NCBI GenBank assembly: GCA_903813345.2
Contig: CAIIXF020000001.1
Span: 11,656,001 to 11,720,000 of the forward strand
DNA: 64,000 nucleotides
Direction of reading: 5' to 3'
Source of the DNA: Owenia fusiformis
Taxonomy: Eukaryota
Part shown: positions 4,814 to 58,900 of the stretch, one piece after another
Numbering within the stretch: the first letter of the stretch is position 1
How the letters are laid out: each line of letters begins with the position of its first letter
Made by a program: the position numbers and the translations under genes
The notes under the pieces: model-generated
Databases searched by the model: none
The model's input: only the letters and a program-made list of their open reading frames with translations
Told to the model about the DNA's origin: nothing

Positions 4814-4946
4814 CTTGTATTTCCTGACGTAAATTCAAACTCTTCTACTATCTGCGTAATGAATTCCTTGACCAATCTGAACGTGTCCCTGCCAACTCGA
4901 TTAGAGGCATCCACCACAAAGACGACATCAGACTTTGATTCGCAAG
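4814..4946 (-). CDS. Exon 32: VWA5 N-part with degenerate MIDAS (SCESKSDVVFVVDASNRVGRDTF...)
   Basis: ttcag/gtaaa boundaries; DxSxS changed to DASNR. Confidence 0.85.
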
Positions 4947-7900
4947 CTGAAGCATAAATCGAAGATATTCTGTACAAATGATGAAAATCTATTATAGGAT
5001 TCTATGGTTCAACATACAATCCAGTTTGAAATCAGGATGACTTTATACAATAATGTATTAACATAATATGGGGAGAAGGTAAAATTATTCTCAGAATCAT
5101 GTTTTCGGAGAGGCCAATATTTTGATGCGACTCCTTACTCATCTTATATTAAGACCACCCTTTATGTGAAAACTATGATAAATATATCAGTTGTACATTT
5201 CAAAATGATACATTATGTGCTTTATGTGGTTTTGGTTGAGAATGTGTCCTCTGCATATGTGTTTCCATTTTCTGGTTCAACATATGAACACCATTTTATT
5301 CATATATGCTTTGCTGTAGGTGAATAGGATAAGGGGGGGGGTGCTTTACTTACATCTCTCGCATGTCTTTCCAGAGTAGCCAGCTGGACATGTACATTTG
5401 AACTGTTTGATACCATCCTCACATTTACCTCCATTCTTACAAGGATTTCCCTTACATTGGTCCTCATCTAGGAAATAGAAAGACATGCTGTATATTCAAA
5501 TGTCTATTGAAGTAGTTCACAACTTTTGACTATTTCAAGGAATATTTGTATCTTCCATCATGCCATCAAAAATTCTTAGTCAATAAAATGTAACACCTTT
5601 CCAAGTTCATATAATCAAAATATAATAGCAGTAGTATAGTAGTAAATAAAATTTAAGGATATATTGCTGATCCATGATCTTCTTTCCATTTATTGTGAAC
5701 TTTGCCAGTTTGCCGCAAGTCGCACAATGCTCACTTGTATTTACTGATGCAATTAATCATATTTTGAAAAAGTAGCTTCTTAATTCTCACCTTCAAAGAT
5801 CAGTTTTCTAACTCGCTTCACTGTGTTTGGGGCATCTCGGAATATGTCCACATAGAATGAGCCCTCATCGCGCAATGATGCGATCTCAGTCATTTCACGT
5901 TTGTTAGGAATGGCGACACCTATTGTGACTACGTAGATGCCATCTTGTTCGGCTTCTCGGGCAGAGGGCAATGTTTTAGCCAGGTTGATGTTATGGTAAC
6001 CATCTGTAAGTTTAAAAGACATGTACTGACTGTCCTAGAAGTACATGTCATAATAAATTTTTATTTTACCTTGACCTTTGAACGGACAGTGCACACAACC
6101 TTCCCCAGAAATAAAGAAGGCATTAACATGCTAAATGTCACAACCTGCCATTTGTTACAGACATCAACCGCCATTTGTGGTGTTGACATGAAAATGATTA
6201 TTTAGGATTTAACTCAACCAATTTGAAGTGTATCAATCCAATGATTAAAAATTTTAGTTATCCTATACGAAAGAAAATATTTCAGAATACTAACTTTACA
6301 GCTGACAAGTATGACAAAATATAACGTCTTTCATACCTGTTAAAAGAACAGCAACATTTCTTGCATCAGGCCTGTCTCCAAACCTAGTAAGGAACATCTG
6401 TTTGTGTGCTGCTGCAATACCATCTGCTGTATGTGTATAACCATCCATGTAATTCACACTGTCCACAGCATTCAATATACCAACCTAAAGAACAGTAAAG
6501 GCGTTATATGAGTGAAATGACAAATTGCTTCCTTTTTCAAAAATCTCTTTTAAACTAGACAACAGCAGTATTCACATACCAAATATGAACAAAACCGCTC
6601 CACTACTTTTCGAGTTACAGCAAAAATCATAAAATAACGAGTAAAGGCCGCCATTTTTCAAGATGGCTGCCATGTGGTTCTTAAATATCTACATTTCTAG
6701 CTTTAGTAATGTCCTATATAATTTTTTACATTTAAAACATATTGCTATTACAGTTTTACACCTAAATTACTGTAAAATCGGCATTAAAATGGCCGCCATT
6801 TTTAAAAGAGCAGCCATTTTGAAACGAGCAGAACTTCGGGCCAATGGTATTTGAGTTATTGCCTGGACGGACGTAAAGTCGGACGGATGGAGGCGTTCCC
6901 TATATCCCTCTGAACTTCGTTCGATGGGATAATAACTTTTAAAGTCATGACGAAGAGTAAATAAATGATAGAAACATATTCTCAAACTTTACATGGGGAC
7001 TTTAAATATAAACTCTGTAGTGTATGAATGATGGAATTATAACACTGTAAAATGCATACCTTTGTTCTGTGAGCATTTAGATGGAATTGAATCCTAGCTG
7101 CAGTACTGTAGGTGACCATTCCCACCTGTATACCACACGACTCTATATCCATTTGCTCCACCATGGTAGAGACAGTCTCCTTTAGGAGCTGAAAATTCTG
7201 CTCCCCCACACTGGCACTTGAGTCAACAATGAATATGATATCTGCCTCCTTGGGGCACTCTGAAACAAAACAAAATTTGAGAGAAATATTAAACAGATCA
7301 ACATGGCATCAAACCTGAACAGAGGTTACTTATTGAGTGGGAATTTGGGAACAAATATAGGATTCATAATGAGGGCTAATTTGGTATTTTTCTTAATAAG
7401 AAAGATATAAAATTGTTTTATCCCATACTGTTCAATGATTTCACTTAAATTAATAATATAACTATAACAATAATAAAATATATCTATCAAGTTATTCTTA
7501 AATTGTATGACAAATTATCATAGAAATAAACTAAGCAAATGTTAGAAATAGCCAAGGACATGTAGTACAGCAGATAGGCACAATGTTCAAGGGCTAATAG
7601 CTGTAAAATATATTTGCCCTATATACTAGTATACTTACTAGTTTCACACGATTTTCCACCAAAGCCATATTTACATCTGCATGTGTATCCACCAAGTCCT
7701 TCAATACAAGTACCACCATTCTCACATGGGATGGAGGCACAATCCTGGTCATCTGTAAACAAACACATACAAACACTTTCAATACAAGCACCATCATTTT
7801 CACATAGCAGGGAGGCACAATCCTGGTCATCTGTAAACAAACATATACAAGACCTTCAATTCAATAACCACCATTCTCACATAGCAGGGAGGTATACTCG

Positions 7901-10900
7901 TGGTAATCTGTAAACATACACATACAAGACCATCAATTCAAGTACCATTATTTTTACATAGCAGGGAGGTATAATCGTGGTAATCTGTAAACAAACACAT
8001 ACAAGACCTTCAATTCAAGTACCATTATTTTTACATAGCAGGGAGCCACAATCCTGAGCATGTGTAAACAAACACATACAAACACCTTCAATAAAAGTAC
8101 CACCATTCTCACTTGGTAGGGAGGTACAATCCTGGTAAACAAATATAAACAAGACCTTCAATACAAGTTCCACCATTCTCACATAGCAGGGAGGTACAAT
8201 CTTGGTCATCTGTAAACAAACACATACAAACACCTTCAATCCAAATACCATCATTCTCACATGGCATTTTAAAACATAACAATATATCACCCCATAGACA
8301 CCAGATAATCAATCTACTTGGAACTTCATCAAATCAAAGTATTATTGAAGAAGTCTTCAGAATGTAGAAGGTGCAGCCAACGCAAGCAAATTCCTTTTGA
8401 TATATAGCATAATACAGTTCTTAGAATAGACATTACTTCAACCAAACAATAGTATGTATACCTTTAGAAGTTTGAATAACAAGATATTTACAACAAGAAA
8501 ATGGATTAAACGATGACATTTTCCAAGACAAAGCATCAGTCTAATAATATTGATTAGGCATACGGTACTTGCATTATCTTTGACACATACATACACAATG
8601 TGGTAAAGTATACAGACTTGGAATACATATGATTACTTTACAAACATACAGGATCAGATGACCAATGTCATAATCATTGAGATATATCATGACTGTTAAA
8701 TCCATATTTTTATTTTCAAAACAGATAGCGAAGGAAATATTCTCACGATATAATCAGTGAAACTAAGAAAGTGAGATTTCTATTTGAGATGTCCCATTTT
8801 GGATTGCCTCATCCCGGATAGTCGCTGACCAATCAGATACATGGATTTGCAATGGAGGAGCACTACTCGGGTTACAATTTTACTATATTTATGTTTGAGA
8901 AATAGAACATAATTTAAAGATTGGAAACTCAAACAAAGAAAATAACAAATTATGTGACAAACGAAAATTCATATTAAATTAATGGCACCAAACAATATAA
9001 CATTACCTATGACAAGGGACAACAATCATGACGTACCAATAGGTGTCACTGTATCTTACATAATATTAAGTGAAATAACATCAGTTCTTATCCTGGTCAT
9101 TAACATTTTAACAGTCATCACCATTGCAAAGGTTGAATCTCTACATACGGTGATGAATAAACTGTTTGTGAATTTGGCATGTGCGGATTTACTCCTTGGG
9201 GTGTCATTACCATATTGTTCACTGCGTTTCTACCAGCTTGATATGGTATACAGTAGTTTAATGCTAGAGAAAATATCATGTTTGGTGTGTCAGTATGTAA
9301 CACTAGCCACAGCTTCCGTAAGTTTTCTAGGATTTTCACTGATTGCTTTGGACCGTTACTTGGCAATAACGCAACCACTGATGTACCACCAGCTAATGAC
9401 TAAGAAAAGACTCTTAGGAGCAGTCATATTTATTTGGTTGTTTGTATTCAATGTACTGGGCATAATGATTGGGTTGAACAATTGGAGATCAGGGACTCAG
9501 TGCACAGGTCTTCTTGTACTCAATAGAGCCATGTACTCTATAGTGATCTTGGGTCTTGGTGGTCTACTAAGTATTACATCTGCAATGTTATATGCTAGAA
9601 TCTTCTACATAGCCTGGCAGCAAAAGAAACGCATCCAAGCAGAAGAGATCAGTTATGGTCAGAAATGTGCTAATTCTGACACCAAAATGGCGAAGACAAT
9701 GGCTATGGTGTTTTGCAGTCTCTGTGTCTGTTACCTCCCATTCATCATTGTCTCTGTCTTTCTACGGCCTTATACACCAGAAGAGAGACCCTTTTGGCTC
9801 AAAATATCATTGGGATATGCGACCATCTTTGTTTATTTCAACTCATTCCTAAATGCTATCATTTACTCATGGAGAAATAAGGATTTCCGTAAAGCCATGT
9901 ATCAGCTGGTGTTTCCAAAGAAACAGCTTATCATGAATGTGCAGCCAACTACGGTGTTTTCACTTGATAAATACATTTCAGTGACAAACTGATTCTGAAT
10001 GATGCTATAGCGTTTAGCGAGTAGTCATATTTGCCATATATGGCCCCTCTTCATTTTAATGAACTTAAGACTCAGAGGGGGGAAGATGATCTTTAAAATA
10101 TTCCTAAAAAGTCATTTATCTATTAATAACTGAACATGTAAAACAAAGAAAATATCAGAAGGCTAGAATAAATATAGTTTTCAAATCAAATCAAATCAAA
10201 TGAAAATGGAATTAGACAAAGGGCCCAAAAGGCTTACATTTGCAATATGCACGTATCAATGTTGGAATGATTTAGGGACAAGTTTAAAATATTAATGCCT
10301 TTAATGCTGATAAAGATAATTACACTTAGGAGATGAGTAAAAGTTAACTTTTTGTAGCAAACAGCAAAACCTGTAAACATGTCTGTAAGTGGAAAGCCTC
10401 GATAAACGGAACTTTTTTCAAATCTGTATCCAATTGACTTACTGTTTAATGAATTTGTAAATGGAAAGCCTCTAAAGCGGAACACTCTTTAAAGGAAAAT
10501 AATAAGGAAAATATGGGGATCAATCTAAAATATCATCAATTTTGAGACAAAATTGAAATATTGACTAGGTCCTTTATGGTGTTTATAATAAGCAGAGATC
10601 AATACATTTTGGGATTTTAAACCAATAATTCTCTCAGTTGATTGTGCTACCTTAACCCAGACATCACAAATAAAATAAACAGATCATAAAGGCATCTGAC
10701 CATTACACAAATCTGACACTTACATTATAAAATTATTATCATGTTCATGCCATTCAAAAAAAACTAGTAGAAAACAATAAGGTTAATTATAAATGTCAAT
10801 AAATTATAATGACCTGATTTAGCATATTGTCTGTAATTATTGATGTGTTGAAATGAATGTTAAAAATGACGGAATTAATAACAAATGTATTAATGATTGT

Positions 10901-13900
10901 TCTAGTTCGCTCTGCAAGACTAAAGTATTGAAAATATATATTTTATGAGTTTTCCATTTGCAAGATGGTACATGTAGATCTATTTTGTCATTAGAATGAA
11001 CAAAAAATCTAGATGATTTCAATTCCATTTGTTAAAATAGAATAATATATACACAAAGATCAAATGTCCTGTTAGGCATATTCAAAGAACTTATCGACAG
11101 AATTAATGGCTCGTTTAAAAACACTTTTTGTGTCTTGCGCAGCCCTTGGATGGACAATTTTGGTGATCATTATTTTCATCATAGACCACGATGTAAGTCA
11201 ATTAGGTAGGAAGATGATGAAATCAATACCAGGAGAGCAAAGTGTATTAAGTAGATTCAACACATTGTTGCAGCCCAATAGAACACATTTATTCATTCAA
11301 GAAGGTGAAAGACAAAATTGCAGTATTGATAACATGATGGATGTTTTTAATAAAGATATCAGTGATCGTTATATGTCTTCTTTTAACAGATCTGAGCTAT
11401 TATCTAATATTGATCCATCTAAAATGAGATTTCCGTACCAGGAAAGGTATCTAAAGACAACTTCGGAAGCATTAAGGAGTAAATTGGTCAAGGACCTTCA
11501 ATGTATCTTGTCAAAGACCCCGACTCAACAGATAACCTTGATCGGGGCTAGCATCGGTTATGAACTGAACCTTCTCAATTGGTTGATTCTTGCATGCCTT
11601 CGGAATAAGCCACCAATGAAAAACATTCTGATATTCACCCCTGAAAATAAAGTACACCTTTGGCTCAAGGAAAAGGGAATTCCAAATATACTAACACCAT
11701 ATGATAATATATTCCTCCCAATTGGCCAATCAGAAGGCTTCTTACATAATATAAAAAAGTTCTGGATATTACGCTTATTTCTATGGAAACTTTTACATCA
11801 CCATGGATATGACATCATTAATTTTGATTCTGATGCTTATCCACTGTTAGATGCGGGGCCTCTCTGGGAAATCTATCCAGATGCAGATGTAATTTCTGCG
11901 GCGGGGAAGTACCCAGCTGATATTACAAGGAAGTGGGGCTTCAGTCTTAATCTTGGCGTGACCTTGCTGCGCTATACTCCACGTACAGGTACTGAGAAAT
12001 AAATGTTGACAAAGAATATGCTAGAAAACTAGTTCTTTTGACAATTAGTCACTAAAATTTTCTCAGTCGAACAGTTCAATTCAGATTAAGATAGTAACAT
12101 ACTGCATATAGTTCATCTTTTTGTGTTGTTTATAGTACATGTTGGAGGTTTTTTACAAATTACGTTTATCTGTAAGTTATTAATGGAATTGAAATTTTCA
12201 GAAAGCATCTACTTGTATTACTCTCTTTTTCAGATTTGTTTTGGGGGGCAGCTATTGAGGAATCAAAGAAAGCAATAATTGATGACCAGATAATTGTCAA
12301 CATGGCCTTGGCAAGACTGGGCGTACAATGGAACTGCATTCGAAAAGACTTTCAATACAGTGAGATACACAAACGCTCTATAGTAGGTCAAGCTATAGTG
12401 GATCCCAACACAAATTTTTCAACTGCTAAATTTTTGGGTGCCTCCAGACCTAAACCCCTGTTGGAACTTGTTGATACAAATTCAAATTCAGTACCTAATG
12501 GCAAACTAATCTTTTCAGTAGTTGCTGTACAAACAAACATATTTTGTCGACACCAGTGTGATAATGGCAATTTTGAAGGTGTCTATGTTTTACATAAGAT
12601 CCCACATTTAGATGCAGTGATCAATGTTTTAAATCTTAAATGGAACTCTATGCAAACGGACACCAAAGGCTTAGAATGGTTGCGATATGTAAGTGTTATT
12701 GATTTCTGACTGTGTTTAGTGAGGCGTTCCAAACTATCATAAAATGACAGATGTTATGCCAGTGTTACTAGCTTGTTTAACATTGATTGTGTATTTCATG
12801 TTTATATTCAATTTATTTTATACAACAATCAATTTTCAAATTATATACCACTAATCTATAATCTGATCTTTATATGTGAATTTATGATTCAGAATTGTTA
12901 AAACATAATCAAATGCAATATTTAATCATTGTGTCAGTTGCTGAATTTTGAACAATTAGTAATCAACATAACGTTTACAGATTTTTTTAATTTTACATTT
13001 ATCGATTGTTTTTCAGAATTGAATTGTATCTTTGTCAGGTTTATAATCCGAACGCTGCCACCAAATCCAGTTGTGACTCAATCATATTCACACACAATTA
13101 CAAGATATAGATGTACGGGATTTTCCAATATGCCAGTGTCATAATCAATTCCATGATATTCAACTTATAGCATCAGAATCAATGAGCAATTTCATAATCG
13201 ATTATCCAAAATTAAATGAAAAATAAATTTTACATCTACAAAATGTTGATGCAATTCTAAAATTTTCAAAATTTTATCAACATAAAATCTGGTGAGTAAG
13301 AAAATATTCATGCCACCTTATGAGATGTCGCATTTATTTCCCCGCATTAGTAACTAATCCACTCTATGAGATATTGTATTTATTCTCCCACTCTAGCAAT
13401 TTAATGGAGATATCATATTCATTTCCCCGCTTTAGCAACTTAATCCACTCTATAAGATATTGTATTTATTCCCCAACTCAATATGTGCTGATCGAATACT
13501 AAAGTAATTTACCTTTTTGATTTAAATATATGAATTATTCATCCACTTGACAAGGTGCAAACAGATTTTCTAGTAAAGACACATGTTATGTTAAAATTTC
13601 AACAGGGTATTCATCACAATTTGCTAAAAAGCTAGGGAAATCCATCTTGATCCATCAAGGACTACACTGCTTTAACAGTATGAGAGAGATCACTCAACTC
13701 AATTTCTTGACAGTCAAGAGTATTGAATACGCTTTCAGAATTGCATTATTTTAACCGATTGTTGATCACTCACTATTGTTCATGTCTCGGAAATGACATG
13801 AAGGGTCAAGGTGTCTCGAATTAATTGTCTGCGCATGTTTTATTCCATCACAAGTACAATGAATCTGCCAAATAGATATCAATAATTGATTATTTCAAAA

Positions 13901-16900
13901 TTGCCATCACCAATACTCTTCTATCAGTTATTGATTTTGGTGGATGGAGATAAGCTATAAAGATTTTCTACTTTCAAATTCACCTAACAAGCAAATGAAC
14001 TTATATGTGCTGAAGTGAATAAGTAAGAGATAGACAATGGCAATACCAGGGTGTACCAGGGTAAGAGCACTCCGCAGAACAGCTTTTTGTATACTGTACT
14101 TGTATTATAACTGAATGTCTTATATAATGCGATAGTGATGAAAGAGTGCTGATCCTATTTCAAAGTCACCAAACCAAAATCTGTGAACAAAGTATTAGTA
14201 TGCATAGCACTCTAGTATTCTTTGTGTAATGAATTAAATGAAAATATAGATATTTCAACACAAATGTAACAGTACATGTATAGCATGTTAAAAATAGTAA
14301 TGTTCAACTGTAATAAAAGGATCTTTTGATGCATATACAAATAAACAACAATGATATACATATGTATATAGCAAATCCTGTCTAAGTGGAACATCTTTGG
14401 TATCTCTAAACGTGTTCCACTTGGGAGCTGTTCCGTTTATAGAGGTTCATTTAACATTAAGTCAGGTGGTCTTTGGACTCAGAAAAGTGTTCCACTTGGG
14501 AGGTGTTCTACTTCTAGAGGTGTTCTACTTAACAGGTTTCACTGTACAGTAAAACCTGTCTAATCCGAACACCCATGGGACCAGCCAAAAGCGTTCAAAT
14601 TGGCAGGTGTTCAAATTTCGAAGATATTGTTGGTCGGGGGGGGGGGGGATTTTCATTGTTCAGTCCACTAATATTGAACACTTAATACTTAGTCAGAAAA
14701 CAATACATGTTGTTGATGAGTTTATTCTACAATAGGCCTATAGCCTACTTGTATATGCTATGTTTTATTTACATTTTGAACAATTTCATTATTTTTGGAA
14801 AAATAACTCTTTAATTTTGGCAAAAGCTTTGTAATACACTGAATAAGTATATGATAGTTTGTACAAAGTATATGATAGTTTGTATGCTTATTAAATGACT
14901 TATCTCATATTATGGTTACATAGCACTGCTTTACTTTAGCTGTAGGTCGTTCATTGTTGTTTGTTTCTTGGCACTTTTAGCATTAGCACTATTTGAGTAG
15001 ATACCCTCTTCAATTAAAAAGAATTTTTCATGAGTGCTCATTCGAGATGATGCATAATCTTTCAAAATATTAAGGCCATTCAGTATGTCAGATGTGCCTT
15101 TTTAGGAAGCATTTTAGCGATAGGATATTACGAAGTTGAATTTTTTCTCTTTCTCATGATATAATCTTGTCTGCAAATGTGTCTGTGTTGCCTTTGTGAT
15201 TATAAAACATTTACTGATTGAATCCTAGCTATCATAACAGACCCATGGGATATAAAACAGTTAAGACTTGTTCATAATCCAAATCAAAAACATCCAGTTA
15301 ATTTAAAATAAGGATAAACCAATTATCTCCCAGATTCTCACCTTTCTCTTAATCCAAATCAAAAACATCCAGGTAATTTCTAATAATGATAAAACAATTA
15401 TAATCTTGTCTGCAAATGTGTCTGTGTTGTCTCTGTGATTATAAAACATTTACTGATTGAATCCTAGCTATCATAACAGACTCATGGGATATAAAACAGT
15501 TAAGACTTGTTCATAATCCAAATAAAAAACATCCAGTTAATTTAAAATAAGGATAAACCAATTATCTTCTTGATTCACACCTTTCTCTTAATCCAAACAT
15601 AAAACATTCAGTTCTTTTCTAATAGGATAAACCAATTAACTCCCGTATTCACACCTTTCCTGTTGTTTTCCACAATTAGGGATGTCATTGAGACTTAAAT
15701 AAGTTAATAATTAGGACAATATTGGTTCTTTGATTACATTGCATATGTAAAGATAATAAGAACTATAACATTGACTCAACATGTGGCTATTATTGAAATG
15801 TCCAGACATTTGATTTCTGATAAAATGTTCAGATTAGACAGGTCAGTTTTTCAAATCTGATTGTTCACTGTTCAGATTAGGAGGTGTTCAGATTTCAAGG
15901 TTTTTTTAACATGGGAGTCAATGGGAGGAAAAAATGGGACCGAAAAAAAGTGTTCAAATTGGAAGGTGTTCGGATTAGCCAGGTGTTCAGATATACAGGT
16001 TTTACTGTACATGTATCCCATTTTACTCACCTACACATATTGGATCAGTTAAGCTAGCAGTGTTGTTGATCAAAGACTCATAGTCGTGGACAAAATGGAC
16101 CAACTGTGGGGCAGAAGCAATACCTTCAAGTTCATGACGTCTCTCAGATAGTCCTATACCCACTCCTAGTACAGTGATACCATCCTCCTTTACCAACCTG
16201 ATAATGACAAATGATTCATGAATTTAAGGATAAACATCAATGCAAAAATGTACAGAAATGAACATGATTACATTTGGAAGGTAAAAAGCCAATAACACCC
16301 AAATACTGACCCGAATTATGAGTGTCAGGAATAATTGAAAAATATATTCTTGACAGATTATCTGTTGATTTTCACTATGAACATATGTATATGTTTGTAA
16401 TATTGTAGTGAATTCAAAAATTGAGACATACCCTTTGTCTAAAAGCATTTCTAAATCTGTATTTTTTAACATAGATGCAGGGCCAATAAAAAGATGGCAG
16501 TTTGACTGATTTGTCTATTTCTGCCCTACACTATGTAACATCACTTTCAAGTCAGTACATTTGGTTTTGAACTCCGTGTGCAAGGTGATGTATCATTAAA
16601 GACTTTGTACTCTAATAAAGATGGCAGTATAATCAAATGAACTCTTAAACAAGTACACATAACTTACCTAGCTTCAGGAACAGTCATTTCATGATTCACA
16701 TTCGATTCGCTATCAGTGATGATAATAGCCACATTTACTACATTAGGCCTGTCCCCTGCAGCTTCTGTAAACATCTGGGTTCTCATCAATCGAAGTGCAT
16801 CAGAGGTGTGAGTCAGTCCATACCTGTATTCCACCTGCTTTAGACCCTTCACTACATCCTCGGTTGTTTTGTGCTCATTTAGACGGAACACTGATACGGC

Positions 16901-46900: not shown

Positions 46901-49900
46901 TAATTTAGCTGTGGTTGAATATGTTTTAATGACTTACTCTGAGAGTATTTCCCATATCCAAAAGACAATAGCTTTATCATCAGTACTGGCTGTACCATCA
47001 AGATCCACACAGTCATCAGTAACAGTTATCTCCCTATCAGGTCCAGCATCAGCAACAGGAGGCTCATTGGCTTCTGTGCAAATAAACATAATGCAAATAC
47101 ATGTTTGTAGACTTGCAATATTAAACTATGCTGTGAAAGTACTCACTGATTGGAACTACATCAACACTTGCAAACGTGGGTGGGCTACAGGGTGGGGTAC
47201 TTGTAACTTATGATCCCAAAAGCACCATAAGCTATAATAGAGGTCTTATAGGGGTTCATAAGTTAGTTTTATGCATGCACAATTTGCCAACATCGATGAA
47301 AATATATATAATGTTTTACATTCTTTTTATCTCTAATGAGTCAGCATACTTTGGTACAAATATTTAACACTGTACATGTTTCGTAGTCACTAATTATGAT
47401 TCTGGATTTGGATTTTATCCCCAGAAATACCTAAAAATGGTCTCTTGATGTCCATGTATACAATAAATACATTCCATCTTCTTCTGATGCAATGACTTTT
47501 CATCATCACTTTTTCATTTCATTTACCAAATACATTGCTCTCGCTTTACACAAATCTACAGTGAAGTTAACATTAAAAATGTTAACTTACTTAGAGCTTT
47601 GATTTTTACAGCATCTTTATCCAGTAACTTGTCCTCATCATAGACAGTCAGTTCAAACTCATATTCTCCTGGTTGGTTGAGTCCCTCTAGCAATGGTTGA
47701 GCAGCATCTTTAGGTTCAATGAACACTGGAGAGGGGCCCCTAGAAATATGCAATGAAACCCATATAGGCTGTACATGTACACATGACATGTCTCTCACTT
47801 AATTCATCCTTGTATACTATCAATATGCTTAATAAAAAAAACACTTTTATATTTCACTCTAAATATTCGGACTTGGAATGTTAAACAAGTGAGTGCTCCA
47901 CTTATTTGAGACCTAGCACTATCTAGTATGACAATATAAAGATGCACAATCATCTTTAAAATATGCTTAAAATATAAGTTGTAGGGTATTAAGGTATTTT
48001 TATTTTAAAAGTGTCCCTGAAGCATCATACCTCGATAATGATACAATGTTCCAATATTTAGTAATTACTGTTTATTCTTCACTTGATATTTTTTTCAGTT
48101 GCATTCAATGTTATTTTACTTTTGGGACACTCTTACATCATATTCATACCCAATTTGTTCCCAAGAATATATGACAATCTTGAGGTCATCTGTGCTTGCT
48201 GTGCCATCAAGGTAGAGGTCTTCCTCTAGTGGAAGTTGAAGTTCCCTATCTTCACCTGCATTTGCTACAGGGGGAATCAGCGGTCGCTTGGTGGCCTGAA
48301 TTTCTAAATAAATAAATTCAACTTGTAAAGGCTCAAGATTTACTTTCACAGTTGTCTGCTGTCGTACAAAACATAGTTATTCAGAAATAGCAGATGAAAT
48401 GCCCCAAAATAGTAAATGATCTACACAGATCAGTTAATTCCAGCTTAACTCCTTTATGACTGAAAATTTTGGGGAAAGTGGAAAGAAATGAAAAACTGAA
48501 ATGTAAATGAATCTAGAAGCAAGAAAAGGAAGCAACACCCAATAAGTTATATGTCATTTTGAAGGGCTATACCCATACTTTATTTTTTTTTGAAAAAAAA
48601 TATGAATATGCAAATGAGATAGTGTCATTGTGATGTCATAATTCAAGATGGCGCAGTTGGATTTTTTTTAAAATGGAATTATTTTAGCATTTAATTTTTT
48701 ATTGAGACTTCAATTTAAAAATCTGAAAACACAGAATTATAGATCTTCTTATGCTGATTTCAGTGGTATTTGTACTATGACATAACTCCTACAAATAATT
48801 TTTTTAGAGCTTCGAGACTGCAAATTCTTGGAAAATCCCTATGGCGATTTAACATGGGATTTTATCGTTTTCGATACTTTTTCGCGACATGTCAGATTCA
48901 AGTGCCTCTAACTTTGCACAGAGTCATCAGATTCAAACAATCTTTTTTTTAAAATGTTCCTACTGGTCCATTCTTTTAGAAAATGCATTATTCTTGCAGT
49001 TTTATTGAAATAAGGCCCCTGGAGACCCCTTAGAATAGCAAGAAACAAAATCGATCATATATGATCGATTTTGTTCTAAGGGGTCTCCAAGGGACCCCTG
49101 ATGATAAAAATGCATGATTTATCAATTTATTTAATCCTGAAGTCTGTACAAACATTTTAAAAAAAAGTTCATGACTTTTCGTTAAGTATTTACAAAGTTA
49201 CAGTGATCCAAAGATGGTTAGCGCGCGAAAAATTGCGAAAACGATAAAATCCCCTGTTAAATCGCCATAGGGATTTTCCGAGAATTTGCAGTCTCGAAGC
49301 TCTAAAAAATTTATTTGTAGGAGTTATGTCATGGTATAAATACCACTGAAATCAGCATAAGAAGATCTATAATTCTGCGTTTCCAGATTTTTAAATTGAA
49401 GTCTCAATAAAAAATTAAATGCTAAAATAATTATATTTTGAAAAAAATCCAACTGCGCCATCTTGAATTATGACGTCACAATGACACTATCTCATTTGCA
49501 TATTCACATTTTTTTCAAAAAACATAAAGTATGGGTATAGCCCTTCAAAATGACATAAAACTTATTGGGTGTTGCTTCCTTTTCTTGCTTCTAGATTCAT
49601 TTACATTTCAGTTTTTCATTTCTTTCCATTTTCCCCAAAATTGTCAGTCATGAAGGAGTTAAATATCTTAGGGCTATTATATTTCTAACTCATTTTACAC
49701 ATACATGTATATTGTAACAATTATATTATATCATCCATTAATTATTATAAGAAACATAATTACATATTTCCCACACACAAACTAAAGAGTAAATCTTTTC
49801 TATAAGCCATCTCATCTTCCTTGAACATCATGAAAAATAGTTAAACAATTCACCTGCACAAAAAGTGTTAACAATGGCAGACTGAATCTTTTTCAGGTCC

Positions 49901-52900
49901 TCAAAGTCATCAACAAGAAATCTGTTTTTCTCAATAGGGGGTGTTGCTAATCCATCCAACTCATCTGATTGGCCACTTAGACCAATGCCCACAGCGAAGA
50001 TGTGAATACCTAAAGCACGTGCAGCTCTAGCCTCTGGTAAGGTTCGTCTCCTGTTTACATTAGAGACGCCATCAGTCACAACAATAGCTATATTAGGAAC
50101 ATCTGAAATGCAAAGACACACAGTGACAAATATTGCACTTAGAAAAGACACACAGTGACAAATATTGCACTTAGTAAAGACACACAGTGACAAATATTGC
50201 ACTTAGAAAAGACACACAGTGACAAATATTGCACTTAGAAAAGACACACAGTGACAAATCTTGCACTAAGAAGAGCAAAATGGCTGCCATGTAATTTTCC
50301 AAGCATGCCCTAAATCTAATCAGATCTTGGTACTAAGCTTGAAGGAAATGTAGATTGTCACTCGACTTTTTGGTGATTTTGAAGTCATGTCTGCACTTCA
50401 CAGTTCAAAATCAACTCTGTAGTTATTTGACTACCACCTTCTAATTTGCCTCACTGACCTTTTATCATTTCTCAAACATATTCTCTCAAAATCAGGAAAT
50501 TAGGTTCCTGAGTGGGGGAATTTTGCAGGGAATTTCAGTCACAAAAAGTAATGAGTGACAACTTACACTTCCTCCAAGTGTAGTCTGCTCTTGGAAATGT
50601 AAAAATTTCATGTTGAGTGTGTGTGTATACTTAGTTTTCCTTGAATTCTGCAGACAAAAGTGGCATCTGCTCACCCACCCAGAAGCACATAAAGACAATA
50701 TAGCACTTTGATAAAAGTTAACAATAGACCAAAGTTAGATAAGTGAATTTATTAACAGTCTACAATCATTTCTATGGAGAAATCCAGAATATGAGAGAAT
50801 TAAATGTATAAAAATAGAATTAATGTACCTGGTCTGTCGCCATTAGCCTCAGTAAACATTTCTCTGTACATTTCAAGTAAGCCATCAGCTGTATTGGTAC
50901 TTCCGTATAAGTAAGGAATTGATCTGTAATAACAAACACAACATACCTAAACACGACAATAGTATCAGGTATCAGTATCAGGTGATAATTTAGCTACTTA
51001 TACTTTCCTTATTCATTAAATAAATACTATCTAGGCATTTTCAATAGATTCAACGGTAGGTCCAAAATACTGTAATTTTAATATGTTTATATACATGTAT
51101 TTTTATTGCCAACATAGATGTATATCTTTTTCTTTGTTTAACATAAAAATATATCCTTATTACTCGATATGTCTTAAGATCCAGAAGGTGTACTTTATAC
51201 AGTATTTTATTTATTCATACAAATGTTTTTTCAATATTCTTTCCAAATTTTTATTATTCAGGGTAGCAGGCCTGTTGTTTTAGATTCTAAGCCTATATAA
51301 AATAATTCATAGCTTAAAACCAGAAGTGATTACAATGTGTTGAACCTCAAGTGAGAAGTGCACCAAAAGCACTTTTTATAGAATTTCTTTTTCACTTTCA
51401 TGCTGAGGCTCTGATTATCAACTATAATCCAAATTAACTAGGTCATGTCATTTGAAATATTGTTTAGATTTAGATTTATATAGTTTGGCACTAAACAAAT
51501 AAAGTGAAGTGGAATTTTAACAACATGCACATGTATTGTTTTTTCAATGCAGGCTTATTATCATTTTTGTAACTTTTTTGCATAAAGATTCCTGGGCGAT
51601 GACACAATAGTACAATGGCCAAATGAACTCCAACTATTATGTAGGCTGGAATTGTGAAAAAGTGAATTCTGCACAGTATTTTGTTAATTTTTTGAATAAA
51701 TATCATGTATAGCCACTGATTTATTTATATTATATTATAATAAAATGGTTATGACAGAATAAAACAAGGTATTAACATGCAAAATGTCACCACCTACCAT
51801 TTGTTACAGATGCCAACCGCCACCTGCCAAATGCTGGAGAATAGGTGGTGGCGACATAAAAACCAAAATATTTTCAGTTATATGGATTATACTTTACCCG
51901 ATAGCATTGAGCAGACTTTCAAGTTTATTATATTCGTTCAGATTGAAATGAACTTTTACACGGCTACTGTAAGTCAATGCACCAACACGCACATTACCGC
52001 CATCTATGTTCTGTGAAGATACTATGTTTTCAAGGAATCTCAACTGAAAATAAAGAAATTCTCATTTAAAGATGACATTTATGCTGTTCGACAAAAAGAA
52101 GCTACAAATGATACAGATGTTTCACTTGTGCATAGTTTCAAGTTTCATTTATTTCATATATAATCCCTTGATTTTAAAGTTAATTTGGCAAGTGTGTCCA
52201 CTGTTTACAAGCTAAAGAATTAAACATTTCTGCATCTTTAATCTAATATTTGACAAAATCTCTCTTCTTTTCTGATTTCAAGTGATCACAAGGAACACAC
52301 CAGCATTTGGATAGAAAATATTGCTTTCAATATTGTAAACTTTCTGTGCTTTCTTTTTAATAATCAAATCGCGAAATTATTACTCAATATTTCTAAAGGT
52401 AATTCACTGTAGTTTTTTTGCTAGATCTAAGCCAAATGAATAAATATATCTCGCTATAGAACATGCTTTAAAGAATTACGAATTTCCCAACTTCAATTAA
52501 AAGCAAAGTTATGATTTGAATATTTTTATTTATTATTTTTTTTTTTTATTTATTTATTTATTAGGATAAAACGCTTTTACAACAGCGGCACTACTAAAAT
52601 TTAGTGTGCATCCAAAGAGACTAAAACACATACATACAATAGGTTAAAATCATTAAAAATACATTTCCTTTAAAAATTCGTAAACACATTTCTCAAATTT
52701 ATTTATTTGGTCCTGCCCCCATGTGCCTATGTAAAGTGAATCACCAATAATCCATTGTAGCTTATCATTAAGGCTCGCTGATAAGTATTCACCTACAAGG
52801 GCAACGTCACATGAAGAGATTAAATTGTTAATGAATAGGTTTCTTTTATCCTGGAGGACGGGGCAAAGGAACAGGCGATGGGACATAGAGTCATAAGAAT

Positions 52901-55900
52901 TGGAGGGGCATAATTTACAAAAGCCATCACTTTTATTCCACCTTTTAAGGTCTGATTCTAATTTAAAGCAACCCGACCTGGCTAAGAATTTTTGTCTTGC
53001 TCCTTGGAAGTTGAATGGTTTTTTTAGGTATTCTTCTTGAAAGACATGTCTCTTAACATTTCTATAAAGGGATAGGGATGGCCTGTCGCAAATTGATGAA
53101 AACAATTCCTTAGTAGTAATTTCGTTGGAAATATTGAGAAAGGATGAGTACCATTCTTCAGAATTAACATTTAATTTATTATCGAGCCCATGGTGCACTA
53201 ATATATTTGCTATGTTAGAAACATACTTCCAATTAGATTCTTTATTTATTGAATATGATTCCAAGAGGGCAGATAAAACCTTAGATACTAGGGTTTGTGA
53301 GTTTTTATTCTTTAGATAGCAGAAATAGTCAATTTGACGTTTTTGAAAGATCTTTTCAATTGGACGCCAGCCCATATCACAGACAAGGGCTTCATAAGCT
53401 GGGGAACACTTAAGGCTAAGAATGGATAAACCAGCTTGGTATTGATACGACTTTAAATTTTTCTTCATTTCGCTTGTGTTTGGAAGGAAGACTCCTGCTC
53501 CATGCAATATTGAAGGAAGGAACATGTTATTATACATGGTGTTACCAAATTGAATTCGTTGGATATTACAATGTTTGTTGAGGGTTGAGGTTATATAACC
53601 TTTGAGCTTTTTTGATTTTAAACCAAGAATATTATTAATATGGTGCGAGTCTTTCAGTGTTTTGTCAAAATAAACGCCAAGGTACTTATATGTTTTTACT
53701 TCATTGAGGGAGAGCTCACCAAGCTTCCAAACTTTATGTTTGTTAACTTTTCCACCTATGATCATAACTTTAGACTTTTTTGAGCTGAAACTAAACCCCC
53801 ATTTTTTACCAAATTCGTTTGTAATATCAAGCATTCTACAGAGATCAGATTCGCTGGTAGCTGTGAGGACGATGTCATCTGCAAAAAGCAATGCGGGTAG
53901 AGTTATATCTTTGAAAGGGATACCCATATCATTTTCGATCAGGCTGTCAATCAAATCGGTCATAATTACAGTAAATAGAGGAGGTGAGAGTACACATCCC
54001 TGTTTTAGGCCAGATTCAACTTCGAAACATTCAATACCAAAATTACCAAATATAACTTTGTTTTTGACACATGCGTATAGATTTTTCAATACACGCCAGG
54101 CTTTGCCCTGGATTCCTTTCTTCCAAAGAGATATAAAGAGTTGTTCACGGTCAATAACGTCAAAGGCTTTCGATATATCGATGAAAGCTAGATAAGTCTT
54201 TTGATTTTTATCCCTACGGAGACTACATATACCTTAAAGAGTGAAAATATTGTCTTCCAGACGCCTACCTTTACGGAAGGCACCATGGTAGTCACCAAGC
54301 AGATTATTTTCTTCTAGGAAGGTCATTATTTCCGTTTCTAAAATGCTAGCATATAGTTTATACAGGTTGGACGTGATTGTGATGCCTCGGTAATTACCTA
54401 ATTCTTTACGATCATTATCTTTATGAATGGGGTTAATGGTTCCTTCATACCAATCATCTGGGATAGTTTCCATAAGTTTGAAAAAGTTAAACAATTTTGA
54501 AATGGAAGAAACTATAGAGTCCCCGCCATTTTTCAAAAATTCATTGGGAATATGATCATTGCCGCTTGCCTTTCCATTTTTCAAGTTATTGATTTTCCTC
54601 AAAACTTCTGCTTCGGATATGATAAAATGGTTCAAACAATTTGGAGAAAATTTGGTTTCACTTTCAAGTTTATTTAGTTCATCAGACAGATTGGTCTTGA
54701 CATAGTTGGGGTTTCTACTTTTGGGTCCGACATTTGCCCAATATTTGCCAATCGTATGGGAAACTAATTTGGGGTCGTCAATCGTAGAGTTGGGGTTAAA
54801 TGGGTCAATGATTTCATTTGGGAATTTACTTTTAGCATTAAACATTTGGAGGGTTCGCCAAAAAGATCTAGATGATGAAGATTTACGTAGTGAATTTTTG
54901 GTAATAGTTTTGATATGATTCTTCACATGACGTTCCCTTATAAGGTCCTTTACTTTATTTTTACGATCTAAGTAGGACTCCCATAATGTTAAAATAACAT
55001 TTGGGTCAACAGATTTGACTTTACTCATATATCTATGAAGACGACACGCATCTTTACGACTTTTGATCAGGACTTTTAATTCATCATCCCAAAAGTGGCG
55101 GAGTTTAGGGTTAATAAGGCTTCTACCAATAGTTGTATCTGCAACCTCAGTTAGAATAGTTTTCCAGCTTTTCCACGCTTCATTGACATTACTAAAATCA
55201 TTTAGTGACCAATTTGAGAGTTTATCAGATAACATTTCGCGGAAAGAAGTCCAATCTGTTATTCGTGTTAGGTTGTGAAATGAAATGATTTGTTTATTGT
55301 TTTTAACTGAAACAATTCGTTTTTTGTTTTAATTCTATATTGTTTTTTAATTCCTGGTACAAAAGTTTAACACATTGAAAAATGTCATTCTGAGAAAGTC
55401 CAAAAGTGTTACATTTTATGAACAAAAGTTTTATATTGTACATATATACTACACTGTACTCATATCAGGATTGATGAAGGCTTTTACCTGTTCTTGGAAA
55501 TTTCCCTTGCCTACACTTGTTGATGAATCCACAACAAATACAACATCAGCCTTCACATCACAGCCTAGAGCTGGTTGAGGGGTAGGTGGGGCCAAACCTG
55601 AAAACAACTTGAATATATAACACATCACAGCCTAGAGCTGGTTTATGGGTAGATGGGGCCAATACTGTAAACGAAGTTGAATAAATAACACATCACAGCC
55701 TAGAGCTGGTTGAGGGGTAGGTGGGGCCAATCCTGAAGACAAAGTTGTATATATATAACACAACACAGCGTATACGCATAAAGCTGGTTTAGGGGTGGGT
55801 GGCGCCAATCCTGAAAGTTGTATATATATATAACACATCACAGCGTAGAGCTGGTTTAGGGGAATGTGGAGCCAAACCTGAAAACAAAGTTGAATATATA

Positions 55901-58900
55901 ACACATCACATAATGGAGCTTGTTTTGGGGTAGGTGGGGCCAATCCTGAAATGGAAGTTACAGCTGGTTTAGGGGTAGGTGGGGCCAATCTTGAAAAGGA
56001 AGTTGAAAACCTAACACATCACAGTGTAGAGCTGGTTTAGGGGTATGTGGGGCCAAACCTGAAAACAAAGTTGAATATATAACACATCACAGCATAGAGC
56101 TTATTTAGGGGTACGTGGAGCCAAACCTGAAAACAAAGTTGAATATACACATCACATAATGGAGCTTGTTTTGGGGTAGGTGGGGCCAATCCTGAAATGG
56201 AAGTTACAGCTGGTTTAGGGGTAGGTGGGGCCAATCTTGAAAAGGAAGTTGAAAACCTAACACATCACAGTGTAGAGCTGGTTTAGGGGTAGGTGGGGCC
56301 AAACCTGAAAACAAAGTTGAATATATAACACATCACAGCATAGAGCTTGTTTAGGGGTAGGTGGGGCCAAACCTGAAAACAAAGTTGAATATATAACACA
56401 TCCCAGCCTAGAGCTGGTTTATGGGTACATGGAGCCAAACCTGAAAACAAAGTTGAATATATAACACATCACAGCATAGAGCTTGTTTAGGGGTAGGTGG
56501 GGCCAAACCTGAAAACAAAGTTGAATATATAACACATCACAGCCTAGAGCTGGTTTATGGGTAGGTGGGGCCAATACTGAAAACAAAGTTAAATATATAA
56601 CACATCACAGCCTAGAGCTGGCCGAAGGGTAACAAAAAATCTACTCACGTTTACAGAACTGGGTGTATACAGTCTGCTTGATTTTCTGTAATTCAGCAAA
56701 ACCGCTGACAAGAAAACGATTATCTTCAATAGGAGGTGAGGCCATTGCATCTAACTCATCAGACTGACCGCTGAGACCGATACCAATCGCATAAATATGA
56801 ATGCCTTTGGCTCTAGCTTCTTCAGCTTCTGGAATTGTCCGTCTTTTGTTGATGTTTGAGACACCATCAGTCATGATGATAGCAATATTGGGAACATCTG
56901 GAAAAAATAAAAGGTACAAGTGTAGTAGATTTGTATAATAATGTTTATAACATTTTGATATCACTATTTTTATACTTTTATGTATAACTGATGACTGTGT
57001 TAGATATATACGAGGGTTGATCCAAAAGTTCCGAACCGTTTGCTCTAAAAATCTTAATATTTCATGAATATTGTTCATATATGGCCACAACTACCCCATA
57101 TATAGTAGTTTCATTTTGTGTAAAAATAAACAATAAATCTGACCAGCAACATAGGTGTCTGGTTACCATAGCAGCGTGACAACAGGGTAGGTGGAGCTGG
57201 AATAAATTAAACTTTATTCCGAATTTCAGCAATTGAAGAGCTATTTCAGATCATTTCAATTTGTGGAGTTTCACCACCATAAAATCTCATACAATAGGTC
57301 ATTATAGTTTATAAGTTCATTTGCCTTCAAAATAGTCACCACCATGTGCCACACATTTCTTACAGCGTTTCAACTAGTCCTGTAATACATGGTGAAGTTC
57401 ACCTTTAGCTGTAGCATTAACGCTATTAGTAAATGCCTGGTTAAGGTCAGCTTCATCATCGAATTGGATACCCCACAGTGGTTTCTTGGCTTCAGGAAAC
57501 ATTATGAAAGTCACATGGTGCCATATCAGGATAATATGGTGGATGGGGCTGTAGTTGGGCCTGCAAGCACTCATGTATTGCCTCTGTTGTAACATTGGCT
57601 CTGTGGCCTTGGGCATTATCATGGTGAAAGTAAAAATTCCCAAGGAGATCTGCTCGTTTTTTATTTCTCATAGCATCTTTAAGATCTTTCTTCAGCACCC
57701 AGAACACATTTTTAAACTGAGTAAGTGTCATACCTAATTGATTGACTCAAAATAGATCGACATAAAAGTAATCTAGTTTAAAACTTTGTAAATGATTGAT
57801 AAAGTTTTGTAACTGACCTTTGAATAATAAGCTCCATTGACAGTGACTCCAGTTACCACAGATTGAATAAAGGATAACTGTGTCGTACTCTTGCTCCACC
57901 TACCCTGTTGTCACGTTGCTATGGTAACCAGACACCTATGTTGCTGGTCAAATTTATTGCTTATTTTTACACAAAATGAAACTACTATATCTGGGGTGGT
58001 TGTGGCCAAATATGAACAATGTTCATAAAATATTACGATTTTTAGAGCAAACGGTTCGGAACTTTTGGATCAACCCTCGTATATACTTGTTTTCAAAACC
58101 CATGTGACAAAAACTGTATAGTGATCCATATATGATGGAGAGATTGACGAGTTTAAAAGTCATCAAAAAATATAATATATAAATGACTATAAGAGTTATT
58201 CTTTAATTTACATTATCTAACATGCTGCATTAATTGGTAGTTTCAGATTTAATTGGGAGGAATCTTCTCATGAATTCAGTTTTCAGAATATATGGGATAA
58301 GCATAATAAAACAAAAAGTGTCAGAAGTATTTTTCATTCTTATGCCTGTAAGTAGACGGGTTATTCACTGATTTGAAAAATAACTCAAACACAGTACAAA
58401 CAACGATCAATCATCTACTGTTGGTATTTCTTAAACCTCAAAATTAGCTTTGATATATGATTTTGATGACCATTTAATAGCCAGGGGGTTAGTATGCCCT
58501 GGTTGGGTTTTATTTATGTAAACATGTAGGTTTATATGTAAGAGCAAGAATTGTCCCTCAAACACAATCCGCCCCATCTGGTTCGCATTTGTAAAGTTGT
58601 ATTTTGATGAAAGCTAGGCATTTATACATATGGCGATGCTGACATTCAATGAGGCAGACAGGGCATGTCATTGGCAATGATACGATCAACAAAGCCTTAA
58701 AAACGATTTATATTACACTACAGTACTTAATATTAGCTGTATGCTTAATTATTATTAGAGGATCTATTTTCAAAGGTAATAACACCATGAGTTTGGGCTG
58801 TAGCTTTACTGGCCAAGACAAAGGACTTAATATTTTAAGTGTTATGAAAGATGAGTTGAAATCACCATTTTAAATATACTCAAGTTATGTTCCTAAAATC

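Follow-up and report, generated by a model that had tools for sequence, protein, structure and literature searches.

Why should three tandem arrays in a single annelid gene each lie across a 3' splice junction, with none across a donor? The window analysed here, a stretch of 64,000 nucleotides from Owenia fusiformis, holds a gene with three arrays (A1, A2 and A3) whose units combine the end of an intron with the start of the following exon. In our view they are probably minisatellites of the mirage type, in other words unremarkable small duplications in tandem that fell by chance across 3' splice junctions. Until now mirages have counted as an oddity of lancelets, and three in one annelid gene suggest a wider occurrence among animals.

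Host gene and its public models

All of the arrays considered lie in one gene:

Host gene: 4814..61522, minus strand, 33 coding exons in the window, from E0 (61522-61417) to E33 (4946-4814)

Its product is secreted and carries five VWA, eight K319L-like PKD and two EGF domains (Pfam). Exon boundaries were fixed by exact protein match, not by prediction alone: the translation of the exon chain E0-E33 is identical over 1697/1697 aa to P0279 (CAH1773018.1), whose record is titled 'unnamed protein product, partial [Owenia fusiformis]' and whose model is partial at the 3' end, and the isoform P0051 is a second exact match to the exons. Multi-PKD proteins dominated the search of representative proteins, where P0051 stood at rank 43 and was chosen for its 53% identity. 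Queries with PKD or VWA exons returned no identical protein, because the host-gene models sit in a cluster that is visible through its representative alone. Of the 335 open frames of at least 38 aa on the minus strand, 300 were included in the Pfam scan of exons; the other 35 were 5 frames in an array at 21.4-22.5 kb, 8 at positions 9-2088 and 22 antisense frames. Plus-strand genes lie at 9.0-12.8 kb, and it is to these that the 22 unscanned minus-strand frames are antisense. No second half of PKD domain 4 was found between 45378 and 44437, and this apparently missing half is explained by E13 and E15 being alternative exons.

Intron positions and phases are common to all of the paralogous VWA, PKD and EGF units (the eight paralogous PKD half-exons have an identical domain start position and an identical phase), which indicates that the introns are old and were not gained.

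Anatomy of the arrays

Arrays were detected with Tandem Repeats Finder; to establish what the units are made of, we read the minus strand and compared every unit with the functional junction by alignment. All four arrays of the original prediction were recovered at the positions it had given, together with the exons that hold the functional copies:

A1: 7693..8266, minus strand, period 77, 7.5 copies, 81% matches
Exon E28: 7639..7752, minus strand, EGF domain (Pfam), holds the functional last A1 copy
A2: 41895..42653, minus strand, period 64, 11.9 copies, 95%; also period 383, 2.0 copies
Exon E19: 41776..41908, minus strand, first half of a PKD domain, holds the functional last A2 copy
A3: 55554..56621, minus strand, several period-68 rows plus higher-order periods of 246 and 314
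Exon E4: 55488..55597, minus strand, start of the second VWA domain, holds the functional last A3 copy
A4: 50112..50272, minus strand, 32-nt intronic minisatellite, period 32, 5.0 copies, 96%

A1, A2 and A3 are mutually unrelated, and every unit spans a 3' splice junction. The A1 unit (77-78 nt) joins 22 nt from the end of intron E27-E28 (8278 nt) to the opening 55-58 nt of EGF exon E28. The array consists of a 5' partial unit, six decoys with 74-91% identity to the functional unit (AG kept in 4/6) and the functional copy at 7774-7695, within which the annotated exon starts at base 7752. In A2, 50 nt of the end of intron E18-E19 and 14 nt from the start of PKD half-exon E19 form a 64-nt unit, present as 11 decoys (83-98% identity, AG kept in 10/11) and a functional copy at 41958-41895 with the annotated acceptor at 41908; the array accounts for 745 of the 913 nt of the intron. 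The 68-nt A3 unit combines 24 nt of the end of intron E3-E4 with 44 nt of the start of VWA exon E4. About 16 copies are present, laid out as a 5' partial unit, 15 decoys (60-94% identity, AG kept in 13/15) and a functional copy at 55621-55554 with the annotated acceptor at 55597, and 1024 of the intron's 1051 nt (97%) belong to the array. Exon E4 holds two more in-frame AGs (first exon bases 55570 and 55564), and the annotation uses 55597. Tandem Repeats Finder, unit alignment and the exact protein match therefore agree with the earlier description of three unrelated arrays made of an intron end and an exon start. The fourth array was correctly placed upstream of an acceptor, its end falling 9 nt short of exon E7 (50102), but it is no relative of the junction arrays: it is purely intronic, has no AG-exon junction and is an ordinary intronic minisatellite. 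The remaining 7 of the 10 arrays in the host gene are plain intronic repeats.

It had also been claimed that, in transcript order, the functional exon comes last among the copies, and the annotated acceptors at 7752, 41908 and 55597 bear this out. CAH1773018.1 takes the last copy as acceptor in all three arrays, CAH1773019.1 does so in A1 and A2, and CAH1773020.1 in A1 only (by-eye comparison). These models, from an annotation pipeline that was RNA-seq-informed, are our one source for the use of last-copy acceptors. Three raw RNA runs from 2026 and one raw DNA run, all under one species label, were uninformative for the locus: across 40200-60199 even the DNA run gave about 0-0.5x on unique sequence, 96-98% of the reads continued into unlike sequence, pile-ups occurred at three small repeats only, no splice joints were reported, and A2 and A3 had a depth of 0.

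The exon-derived parts of the units are ancestral coding sequence, so copying ran from the exon into the array. The A1 unit contains the first three cysteines of an EGF domain homologous to exon E32, the A2 unit contains the 'G-N-A-P' start common to the paralogous PKD half-exons, and the A3 unit contains the conserved Cys-Asp-Val start of the VWA domain. Units start at -22 (A1), -50 (A2) and -24 (A3) relative to the AG, with no common landmark. A unit start at the branch point (lariat-intermediate cDNA) is unsupported by these positions, and the only good branch-like motif in A2, as judged by eye, is near -25. A 7-nt 'filler' in the A2 unit was considered as a sign of end joining, and a 5'-truncated first unit explains it equally well. 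The inner copies of A1 have a common variant that is absent from the 5' partial unit and the functional copy (small numbers); this and the higher-order periods of A2 (383) and A3 (246 and 314) look like signs of normal minisatellite turnover.

Decoy sites and the acceptor-donor comparison

Candidate acceptors were scored with a position weight matrix built from the host gene's own 32 acceptors. Seven decoys in A2 score equal to the real acceptor (10.8), seven in A3 score above it (8.9 versus 6.7), and one in A1 equals it (12.2). The expectation that the pre-mRNA would carry many near-identical candidate acceptors thus held up, and only the count of 7-16 stacked acceptors proved slightly generous, the AG-bearing copies numbering 5, 11 and 14 with the real site included. 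As the decoys score at or above the real acceptors, site strength leaves their presumed silence unexplained. Overall, 27/32 decoy AGs are retained, which is about the neutral-decay expectation, and decoy AGs are neither purged nor under special conservation.

On the donor side, no GT in A2 reaches the score of the weakest real donor, and A3 offers only weak cAG|GT sites, at 5.6 against a real donor median of 8.4. One GT in A1 scores 8.3, near that median, and seven others score 3.1-5.7. Recursive splice sites (ratchet points) were considered for A3 and rejected, given this donor score and an intron of only 1051 nt. The 64- and 68-nt units of A2 and A3 are frameshifting, and in both arrays a stop lies directly upstream in the frame of the real exon (ORF limits 41972 and 55631), so decoy use would be mostly harmful, which fits silence. 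The last A1 decoy, with 7830 as its first base, lies upstream of the real acceptor by 78 nt; it shares the phase of that acceptor and is open into the exon, and its use could add 26 residues in frame. The arrays are a natural experiment on 3' splice-site choice, with up to 14 stacked acceptors that match or exceed the real one in strength and of which the annotated mRNA uses the last.

Every junction of the host gene was then compared, as a 60-nt probe, with 1.5 kb on each side. Junction-spanning duplicates were found at 3/32 acceptors. At the donors tandem duplicates were found in 0/33 cases, and hence no donor-spanning array of the F7 IVS7 type; the only donor matches (2/33) are weak (score 31), non-tandem and due to the paralogous exons E18 and E20. 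The absence of a comparable array at any donor, as claimed earlier, is therefore correct for this gene, but the difference between acceptors and donors is not significant (Fisher p = 0.24; binomial 3/3 p = 0.25), and sampling noise is its most likely cause. Nor does the last-copy polarity speak for a mechanism, as had been proposed. It is a geometric necessity, because with a duplication that spans an acceptor the last copy alone runs into the rest of the exon.

A different result is obtained when the number of acceptor arrays is set against chance. With uniform seeding of 10 arrays, 0.15-0.57 acceptor arrays are expected and three were observed; the probability of at least three is 0.0003-0.009, uncorrected for the window having been picked for these arrays. 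A null based on random intronic points (63/400 with a nearby duplicate, versus 3/32 acceptors) was rejected, as it counts every array copy though one acceptor per array can be functional. The 63/400 points with a duplicate do indicate that arrays are common in the host gene.

Origin of the arrays and known counterparts

On the reading that we consider probable, each array would have begun with the duplication of a 64-78 bp segment that takes in an intron end and the beginning of the following exon. It would then have grown through unequal exchange or replication slippage, in part as multi-unit blocks. The spliceosome would still define the true exon at the last copy, because only this copy is joined to the remainder of the exon and its donor, and the upstream copies would be silent or near-silent decoys that merely lengthen the intron. 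The arrays are accordingly most likely neutral passengers. Besides the decoy scores given above, two observations sit awkwardly with this account. The first partial unit of A1 and A3 begins inside the exon-derived part, which one-step tandem duplication does not predict and which needs a later deletion at the array edge. In addition, three junction arrays among 10 exceed uniform seeding, which keeps a junction-biased process in play.

Such a process, in which transcription- or splicing-coupled breakage, R-loops or RNA-templated repair preferentially seed duplications at acceptors, gains from this excess, from the 0/33 donors affected and from the occurrence of amphioxus arrays in several of the few genes examined, for which the reports call the mechanism unclear (PMC3087553, PMC3902484). 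We nevertheless think it unlikely, since the acceptor-donor contrast has p = 0.24, the window was selected post hoc, amphioxus and human genes are documented to have donor-side arrays, the unit starts (22, 24 and 50 nt upstream of the AG) share no landmark, and the remaining 7 arrays of the gene are plain intronic. Slightly more doubtful still is the broader form of this idea, that in Owenia, and perhaps in other minisatellite-rich marine invertebrates, breaks or RNA-templated repair at 3' junctions direct duplication there far above chance; if true, mirages would regularly give rise to longer introns, decoy sites and new exon sequence across Bilateria. Selection could instead have kept the decoy acceptors for tuning of splicing efficiency, nonsense-mediated decay or alternative in-frame segments, in keeping with scores that equal those of real sites and with the 26 residues that decoy 7830 could add. 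This is very improbable given that decoys are used in none of the three public isoforms, AGs are retained as neutral decay predicts, the decoy exon parts contain stops and frameshifts, and copy identity (60-98%) is as in drifting arrays.

The reverse direction was also weighed, with the intronic minisatellite older and its last unit the source of the exon's 5' end. An 11-residue Pro-rich linker, encoded in A3 by the first 27-33 exon nt, is absent from the paralogous E25, E29 and E33, these VWA first exons begin 0.67-1.67 codons before the conserved Cys, and two in-frame AGs (first exon bases 55570 and 55564) remain at the older position. All three units contain conserved domain-coding sequence, however, which could not have come from an intronic repeat; as an account of the arrays the reverse direction is quite improbable, and at most it accounts for the A3 acceptor having shifted upstream secondarily. 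Over-expansion or mis-joining in the assembly has a precedent in one amphioxus mirage reported as mis-assembled in a draft genome (PMC3087553), and the sampled DNA reads are uninformative at the locus. Yet each copy can be told apart from the others (identity 60-98%, private substitutions, higher-order structure), no array exceeds 1.1 kb against a PacBio read N50 of 25-30 kb and optical maps in the published O. fusiformis assembly, and the exons flanking the arrays are in phase and intact on either side, so that an artefact is hardly credible.

With chance duplication as the preferred reading, the closest counterparts are the amphioxus mirages. They have been described in the globin genes BflGb6 and BflGb9 (Ebner et al, 2010, PMC3087553), in Adh3 (Canestro et al, 2002, NAR 30:2871, as cited by others) and in troponin C and PGBD5 (Pavelitz et al, 2013, PMC3902484). 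A1-A3 share the defining features of mirages, namely head-to-tail units of minisatellite size and a unit that spans an intron/exon boundary, and in BflGb6 the unit likewise consists of an intron's 3' end together with the 5' portion of the following exon. Unit sizes (10-160 bp in amphioxus, 64-78 bp here) fall in the minisatellite range in both, copies are several to many with identities of 81-100% and 60-98%, respectively, and splice signals are kept in many copies. Homogenised inner copies with the edge copies excluded are found in amphioxus and, in small numbers, in A1. In amphioxus the authentic mRNA was found to be made despite the decoys, and the public models suggest the same for Owenia; length polymorphism together with normal splicing was demonstrated by experiment in amphioxus, whereas the Owenia arrays are known from sequence and annotation. 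The host here is an annelid, not a cephalochordate, and its gene holds three independent arrays, all on the acceptor side, whereas amphioxus mirages occur at both boundary types (BflGb9 and PGBD5 are donor-side; PMC3087553, PMC3902484). The Owenia arrays also differ in reaching up to 16 copies and in an intron, E3-E4, that is 97% array.

A human parallel is intron 7 of F7, where the first unit of a 37-bp minisatellite lies across the exon 7 donor and mutagenesis showed that the first donor is found by 5'-to-3' scanning (Borensztajn et al, 2006, PMC1557585). Both cases have an array that copies a junction, silent pseudo-sites and an authentic site at the exon-proximal edge (in Owenia, per annotation), but the F7 array is donor-side with a functional first copy, whereas the Owenia arrays are acceptor-side from their sequence. 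They thus mirror an array that has been used in studies of 5' site scanning. The donor-side mirages in BflGb9 and PGBD5 and the F7 intron 7 array contradict the earlier suggestion that decoy donors would not be tolerated. Human genes in segmental duplications are also described as having variable internal tandem repeats at their exon-intron boundaries (De Grassi and Ciccarelli, 2009, PMC2812944); there, too, boundary units of minisatellite size change gene structure and can activate cryptic sites, but they produce new introns or longer exons in recent paralogues, while the Owenia introns are ancient and the coding sequence unchanged. The phenomenon is thus already known from amphioxus, at both boundary types, and from the donor-spanning F7 minisatellite, and Owenia adds a new instance. 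Our literature search found no splice-junction array outside chordates. If the arrays are neutral and at chance frequency, they are a tidy example of a known oddity and nothing more; a genome-wide test is worthwhile, as an assembly, annotation and RNA-seq exist for O. fusiformis.

The proposal that such arrays provide raw material for intron gain is reasonable, yet it was published earlier for the same structures in amphioxus (PMC3087553). In the Rogers model (as cited in PMC3087553), introns are gained through tandem duplication of an exon segment containing AGGT, and potato RdRp is reported as a case of this kind (PMC4974935). The model shares with A1-A3 a tandem duplication that includes splice signals and differs in its outcome, the Owenia gene having no new intron. 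Rogers-type gain was rejected for A1-A3 because the repeats do not include the donors and the paralogous units have these intron positions and phases in common. What intron E3-E4 does illustrate is that an existing intron can be built almost wholly from copies of its own junction.

Junction minisatellites in a VWA-PKD-EGF gene

Among minus-strand open frames at least 38 aa long, 300 of 335 were scanned with Pfam. They yielded a long run of exon pieces from VWA, K319L-like PKD and EGF domains on that strand of the window, which has the G+C content (~34%) of AT-rich animal DNA. We assembled an exon chain via AG/GT sites and reading phases, and from E0 (61522-61417) to E33 (4946-4814) its translation is identical to P0279 (1697/1697 residues), one of two sister models that share a cluster with P0051, the model retrieved from protein representatives. 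P0051 itself is matched exactly once E13 is swapped for E15 (44437-44302). As the chain reproduces a public model exactly, the four arrays A1-A4 all lie inside one gene, and the exon boundaries are backed by an independent model; the O. fusiformis annotation is described as combining RNA-seq evidence, Augustus and PASA (PMC9977687). The protein has 5 VWA, 8 PKD and 2 EGF domains.

Arrays and protein models of the host gene. A decoy is an upstream array copy of the 3' splice junction; the functional unit is the copy joined to the rest of the exon.
7693-8266, minus strand: A1, unit of 22 intron and 55-58 exon nt, before EGF exon E28; 6 decoys, 74-91% identity to the functional unit, AG kept in 4/6
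41895-42653, minus strand: A2, unit of 50 intron and 14 exon nt, before PKD half-exon E19; 11 decoys, 83-98% identity to the functional unit, AG kept in 10/11
55554-56621, minus strand: A3, unit of 24 intron and 44 exon nt, before VWA exon E4; 15 decoys, 60-94% identity to the functional unit, AG kept in 13/15
50112-50272: A4, intronic repeat with a 32-nt unit, ending 9 nt short of E7; no junction within the array
P0051: CAH1773019.1, 'unnamed protein product, partial [Owenia fusiformis]'
P0279: CAH1773018.1, 'unnamed protein product, partial [Owenia fusiformis]'
P0280: CAH1773020.1, 'unnamed protein product, partial [Owenia fusiformis]'

All four arrays of the original prediction were recovered in place by Tandem Repeats Finder. 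Units were read on the minus strand and each was aligned to the functional junction, and every junction was scanned with a 60-nt probe against 1.5 kb on each side. The scan found spanning duplicates at 3/32 acceptors of the host gene and no tandem junction copies among its 33 donors, where the 2/33 matches were weak and correspond to the paralogous exons E18/E20. The observation of arrays at 3' junctions, with none at a donor, is confirmed. Going by coordinates, 1024 of 1051 nt of the A3 intron belong to the array, as do 745 of 913 nt of the A2 intron.

A1-A3 are junction minisatellites of a known kind, the mirages, first described in amphioxus Adh3 (Canestro et al. 2002) and later in the globins (Ebner et al. 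2010, PMC3087553). The repeat in BflGb6 joins the 3' end of an intron to the 5' part of exon 2 and is present in 3 copies in one haplotype and 6 in another, and RT-PCR of the amphioxus globin mirages is reported to show normal splicing, with edge copies that are not homogenised (PMC3087553). The same structures are described in lancelet PGBD5 and troponin C (PMC3902484), and minisatellites at exon-intron boundaries are described as reshaping genes in human segmental duplications (PMC2812944). Our full-text literature searches found no mirages reported outside chordates; within that literature, this is the first annelid case, with three in one gene. The observation in the original prediction is real and well documented; its interpretation was right only in part, and the polarity that it proposed is not supported statistically.

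Acceptors, donors and chance

Arrays at acceptors only were taken in that proposal to suggest either mutational targeting of acceptor regions or tolerance of decoy acceptors but not of decoy donors. The counts do not support this polarity (acceptors 3/31 versus donors 0/31, Fisher p = 0.24; essentially unchanged when the final 32 acceptors and 33 donors are used), and it is contradicted by published donor-side cases. In BflGb9 the donor side is duplicated, and the authors state that either boundary can be affected (PMC3087553). In human F7 intron 7, the first unit of a 37-bp minisatellite lies over the donor, and the pseudo-donors are described as functional yet silent (PMC1557585). The claim that the last copy is always the functional one agrees with the annotation, in which the acceptors of A1 (7752), A2 (41908) and A3 (55597) each fall in the final copy. 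It carries no information: when a segment spanning an acceptor is duplicated, only the last duplicate can run on into the remaining exon.

An excess of arrays at junctions as such is possible. For a null model, the ten arrays in the gene span were each collapsed to one unit, leaving ~50.4 kb in which seeds were placed randomly, and a unit was counted if it contained an acceptor flanked on either side by 8 nt or more. With all ten arrays, 0.57 acceptor-containing units were expected (P(>=3) = 0.009); with the eight arrays of at least three copies, 0.15 were expected (P(>=3) = 0.0003). The acceptor excess over random seeding is suggestive, with P values that must be discounted because the window was flagged for this very pattern among very many windows. 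An assembly artefact is unlikely, given that the copies are mutually distinct, no array is longer than 1.1 kb, and the published assembly is long-read based, described as using PacBio reads (N50 25-30 kb) with optical and Hi-C maps (PMC9977687).

Origin of the arrays and probable silence of the decoys

In each unit, the exon-derived part is coding sequence of ancestral origin. A1 carries the opening cysteines of an EGF domain (compare E32), A2 the start common to PKD half-exons, and A3 the conserved Cys-Asp-Val start of a VWA domain. Copying therefore went from junction to array and not from array to junction. Ebner et al. put forward a model of intron gain and described the mechanism as unclear (PMC3087553). 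Here, the introns of A1-A3 have positions and phases common to all paralogous domain units; they are old introns that were lengthened, not gained. The first, partial unit of A1 and that of A3 start within the exon-derived part, which would not be expected from duplication in one step; a later edge deletion is assumed. By copy matches, A2 is young (95%) and A1 older (81%). Higher-order periods (383 nt in A2, 246/314 nt in A3; Tandem Repeats Finder) and a variant common to the inner copies of A1 but missing from both edge copies are usual marks of minisatellite turnover.

The acceptor of A3 may have shifted upstream secondarily. Paralogous VWA first exons begin 0.67-1.67 codons ahead of the conserved Cys, while E4 (minus strand) has an extra Pro-rich linker of 11 residues that they lack. 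Three in-frame AGs are present in E4, with first exon bases at 55597 (annotated), 55570 and 55564; the annotated one adds the linker, and the latter two remain at the older position. Read differently, these AGs suggest alternative 3' sites.

Site strength does not explain the choice of the last copy in the annotated mRNA, as decoys score at least as high as real acceptors on a position-weight matrix trained on the gene's own 32 acceptors. Seven decoys in A2 equal the real site (10.8), seven in A3 exceed it (8.9 versus 6.7), and the first in A1 equals it (12.2). What the decoys are without is the remaining exon and its donor. A2 contains no GT scoring as high as the weakest real donor, A3 only weak cAG|GT sites (5.6 versus a real median of 8.4), and A1 one GT at 8.3, near that median, and seven more at 3.1-5.7. 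Exon definition would fix the acceptor closest to the real donor and the exon enhancers, and the upstream copies would remain silent. Use of a decoy would usually be harmful, as the 64- and 68-nt units shift the frame and meet a stop just upstream of E19 and E4, whose open frames reach back no further than 41972 and 55631. One decoy differs: the last of A1 (first base 7830) lies 78 nt ahead of the real site, shares its phase and reads through into the exon without a stop, so its use could add 26 residues in frame. Decoy AGs are kept in 27/32 cases, about what overall copy identities predict, and so show no evidence of selection in either direction.

Other features of the locus

Arrays occupy ~11% of the gene span (6027/55324 nt). 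Further tandem repeats (3261-3978, 15160-15659, 29807-31023, 38620-39296 and 63457-63775; units of 12-479 nt) sit in introns or flanks and touch no exon. A minus-strand 30-nt minisatellite (21460-22419; ~30 copies, 89-92% matches) within the 14.7-kb intron E23-E24 yields open frames as long as 332 aa, which almost certainly do not encode protein.

E13 (45378-45510) and E15 (44302-44437), both on the minus strand, are alternative exons that each encode the first half of a PKD domain and probably represent a tandem exon duplicate. P0279 splices E12-E13-E16 and P0051 splices E12-E15-E16; a transcript with E13 spliced to E15 would be out of frame, and the two accordingly behave as mutually exclusive. 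The intron between them holds a small repeat with a 21-25-nt unit (45048-45166).

Four 2026 raw runs under the same species label (X21-X24) barely match 40200-60199 at >=95% identity, genomic DNA included. Depth on unique sequence is almost nil even for DNA, and zero splice joints were reported at that depth; the runs may stem from a strongly divergent lineage that bears the same species name. Short high-copy repeats at ~41146-41320, 51763-51816 and 59195-59335 carry read pile-ups in all four runs (RNA and DNA), reaching ~50-120x mean depth per strand class (DNA run, 667-nt bins) next to almost none on flanking unique sequence, and are probably small interspersed elements also present in a diverged lineage.

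An intronless rhodopsin-family GPCR gene (8961-9992, plus strand; Pfam 7tm_1, E 4e-31) lies antisense within the 8.3-kb intron E27-E28, followed by plus-strand long open frames at 11079-12002 and 12179-12709, neither with a Pfam match. Intron E4-E5 contains a non-LTR retrotransposon remnant (52656-55328, minus strand) oriented like the host gene, with two open frames (364 and 526 aa), broken near 54233-54237, and a reverse transcriptase match (PF00078, E 1.5e-25).
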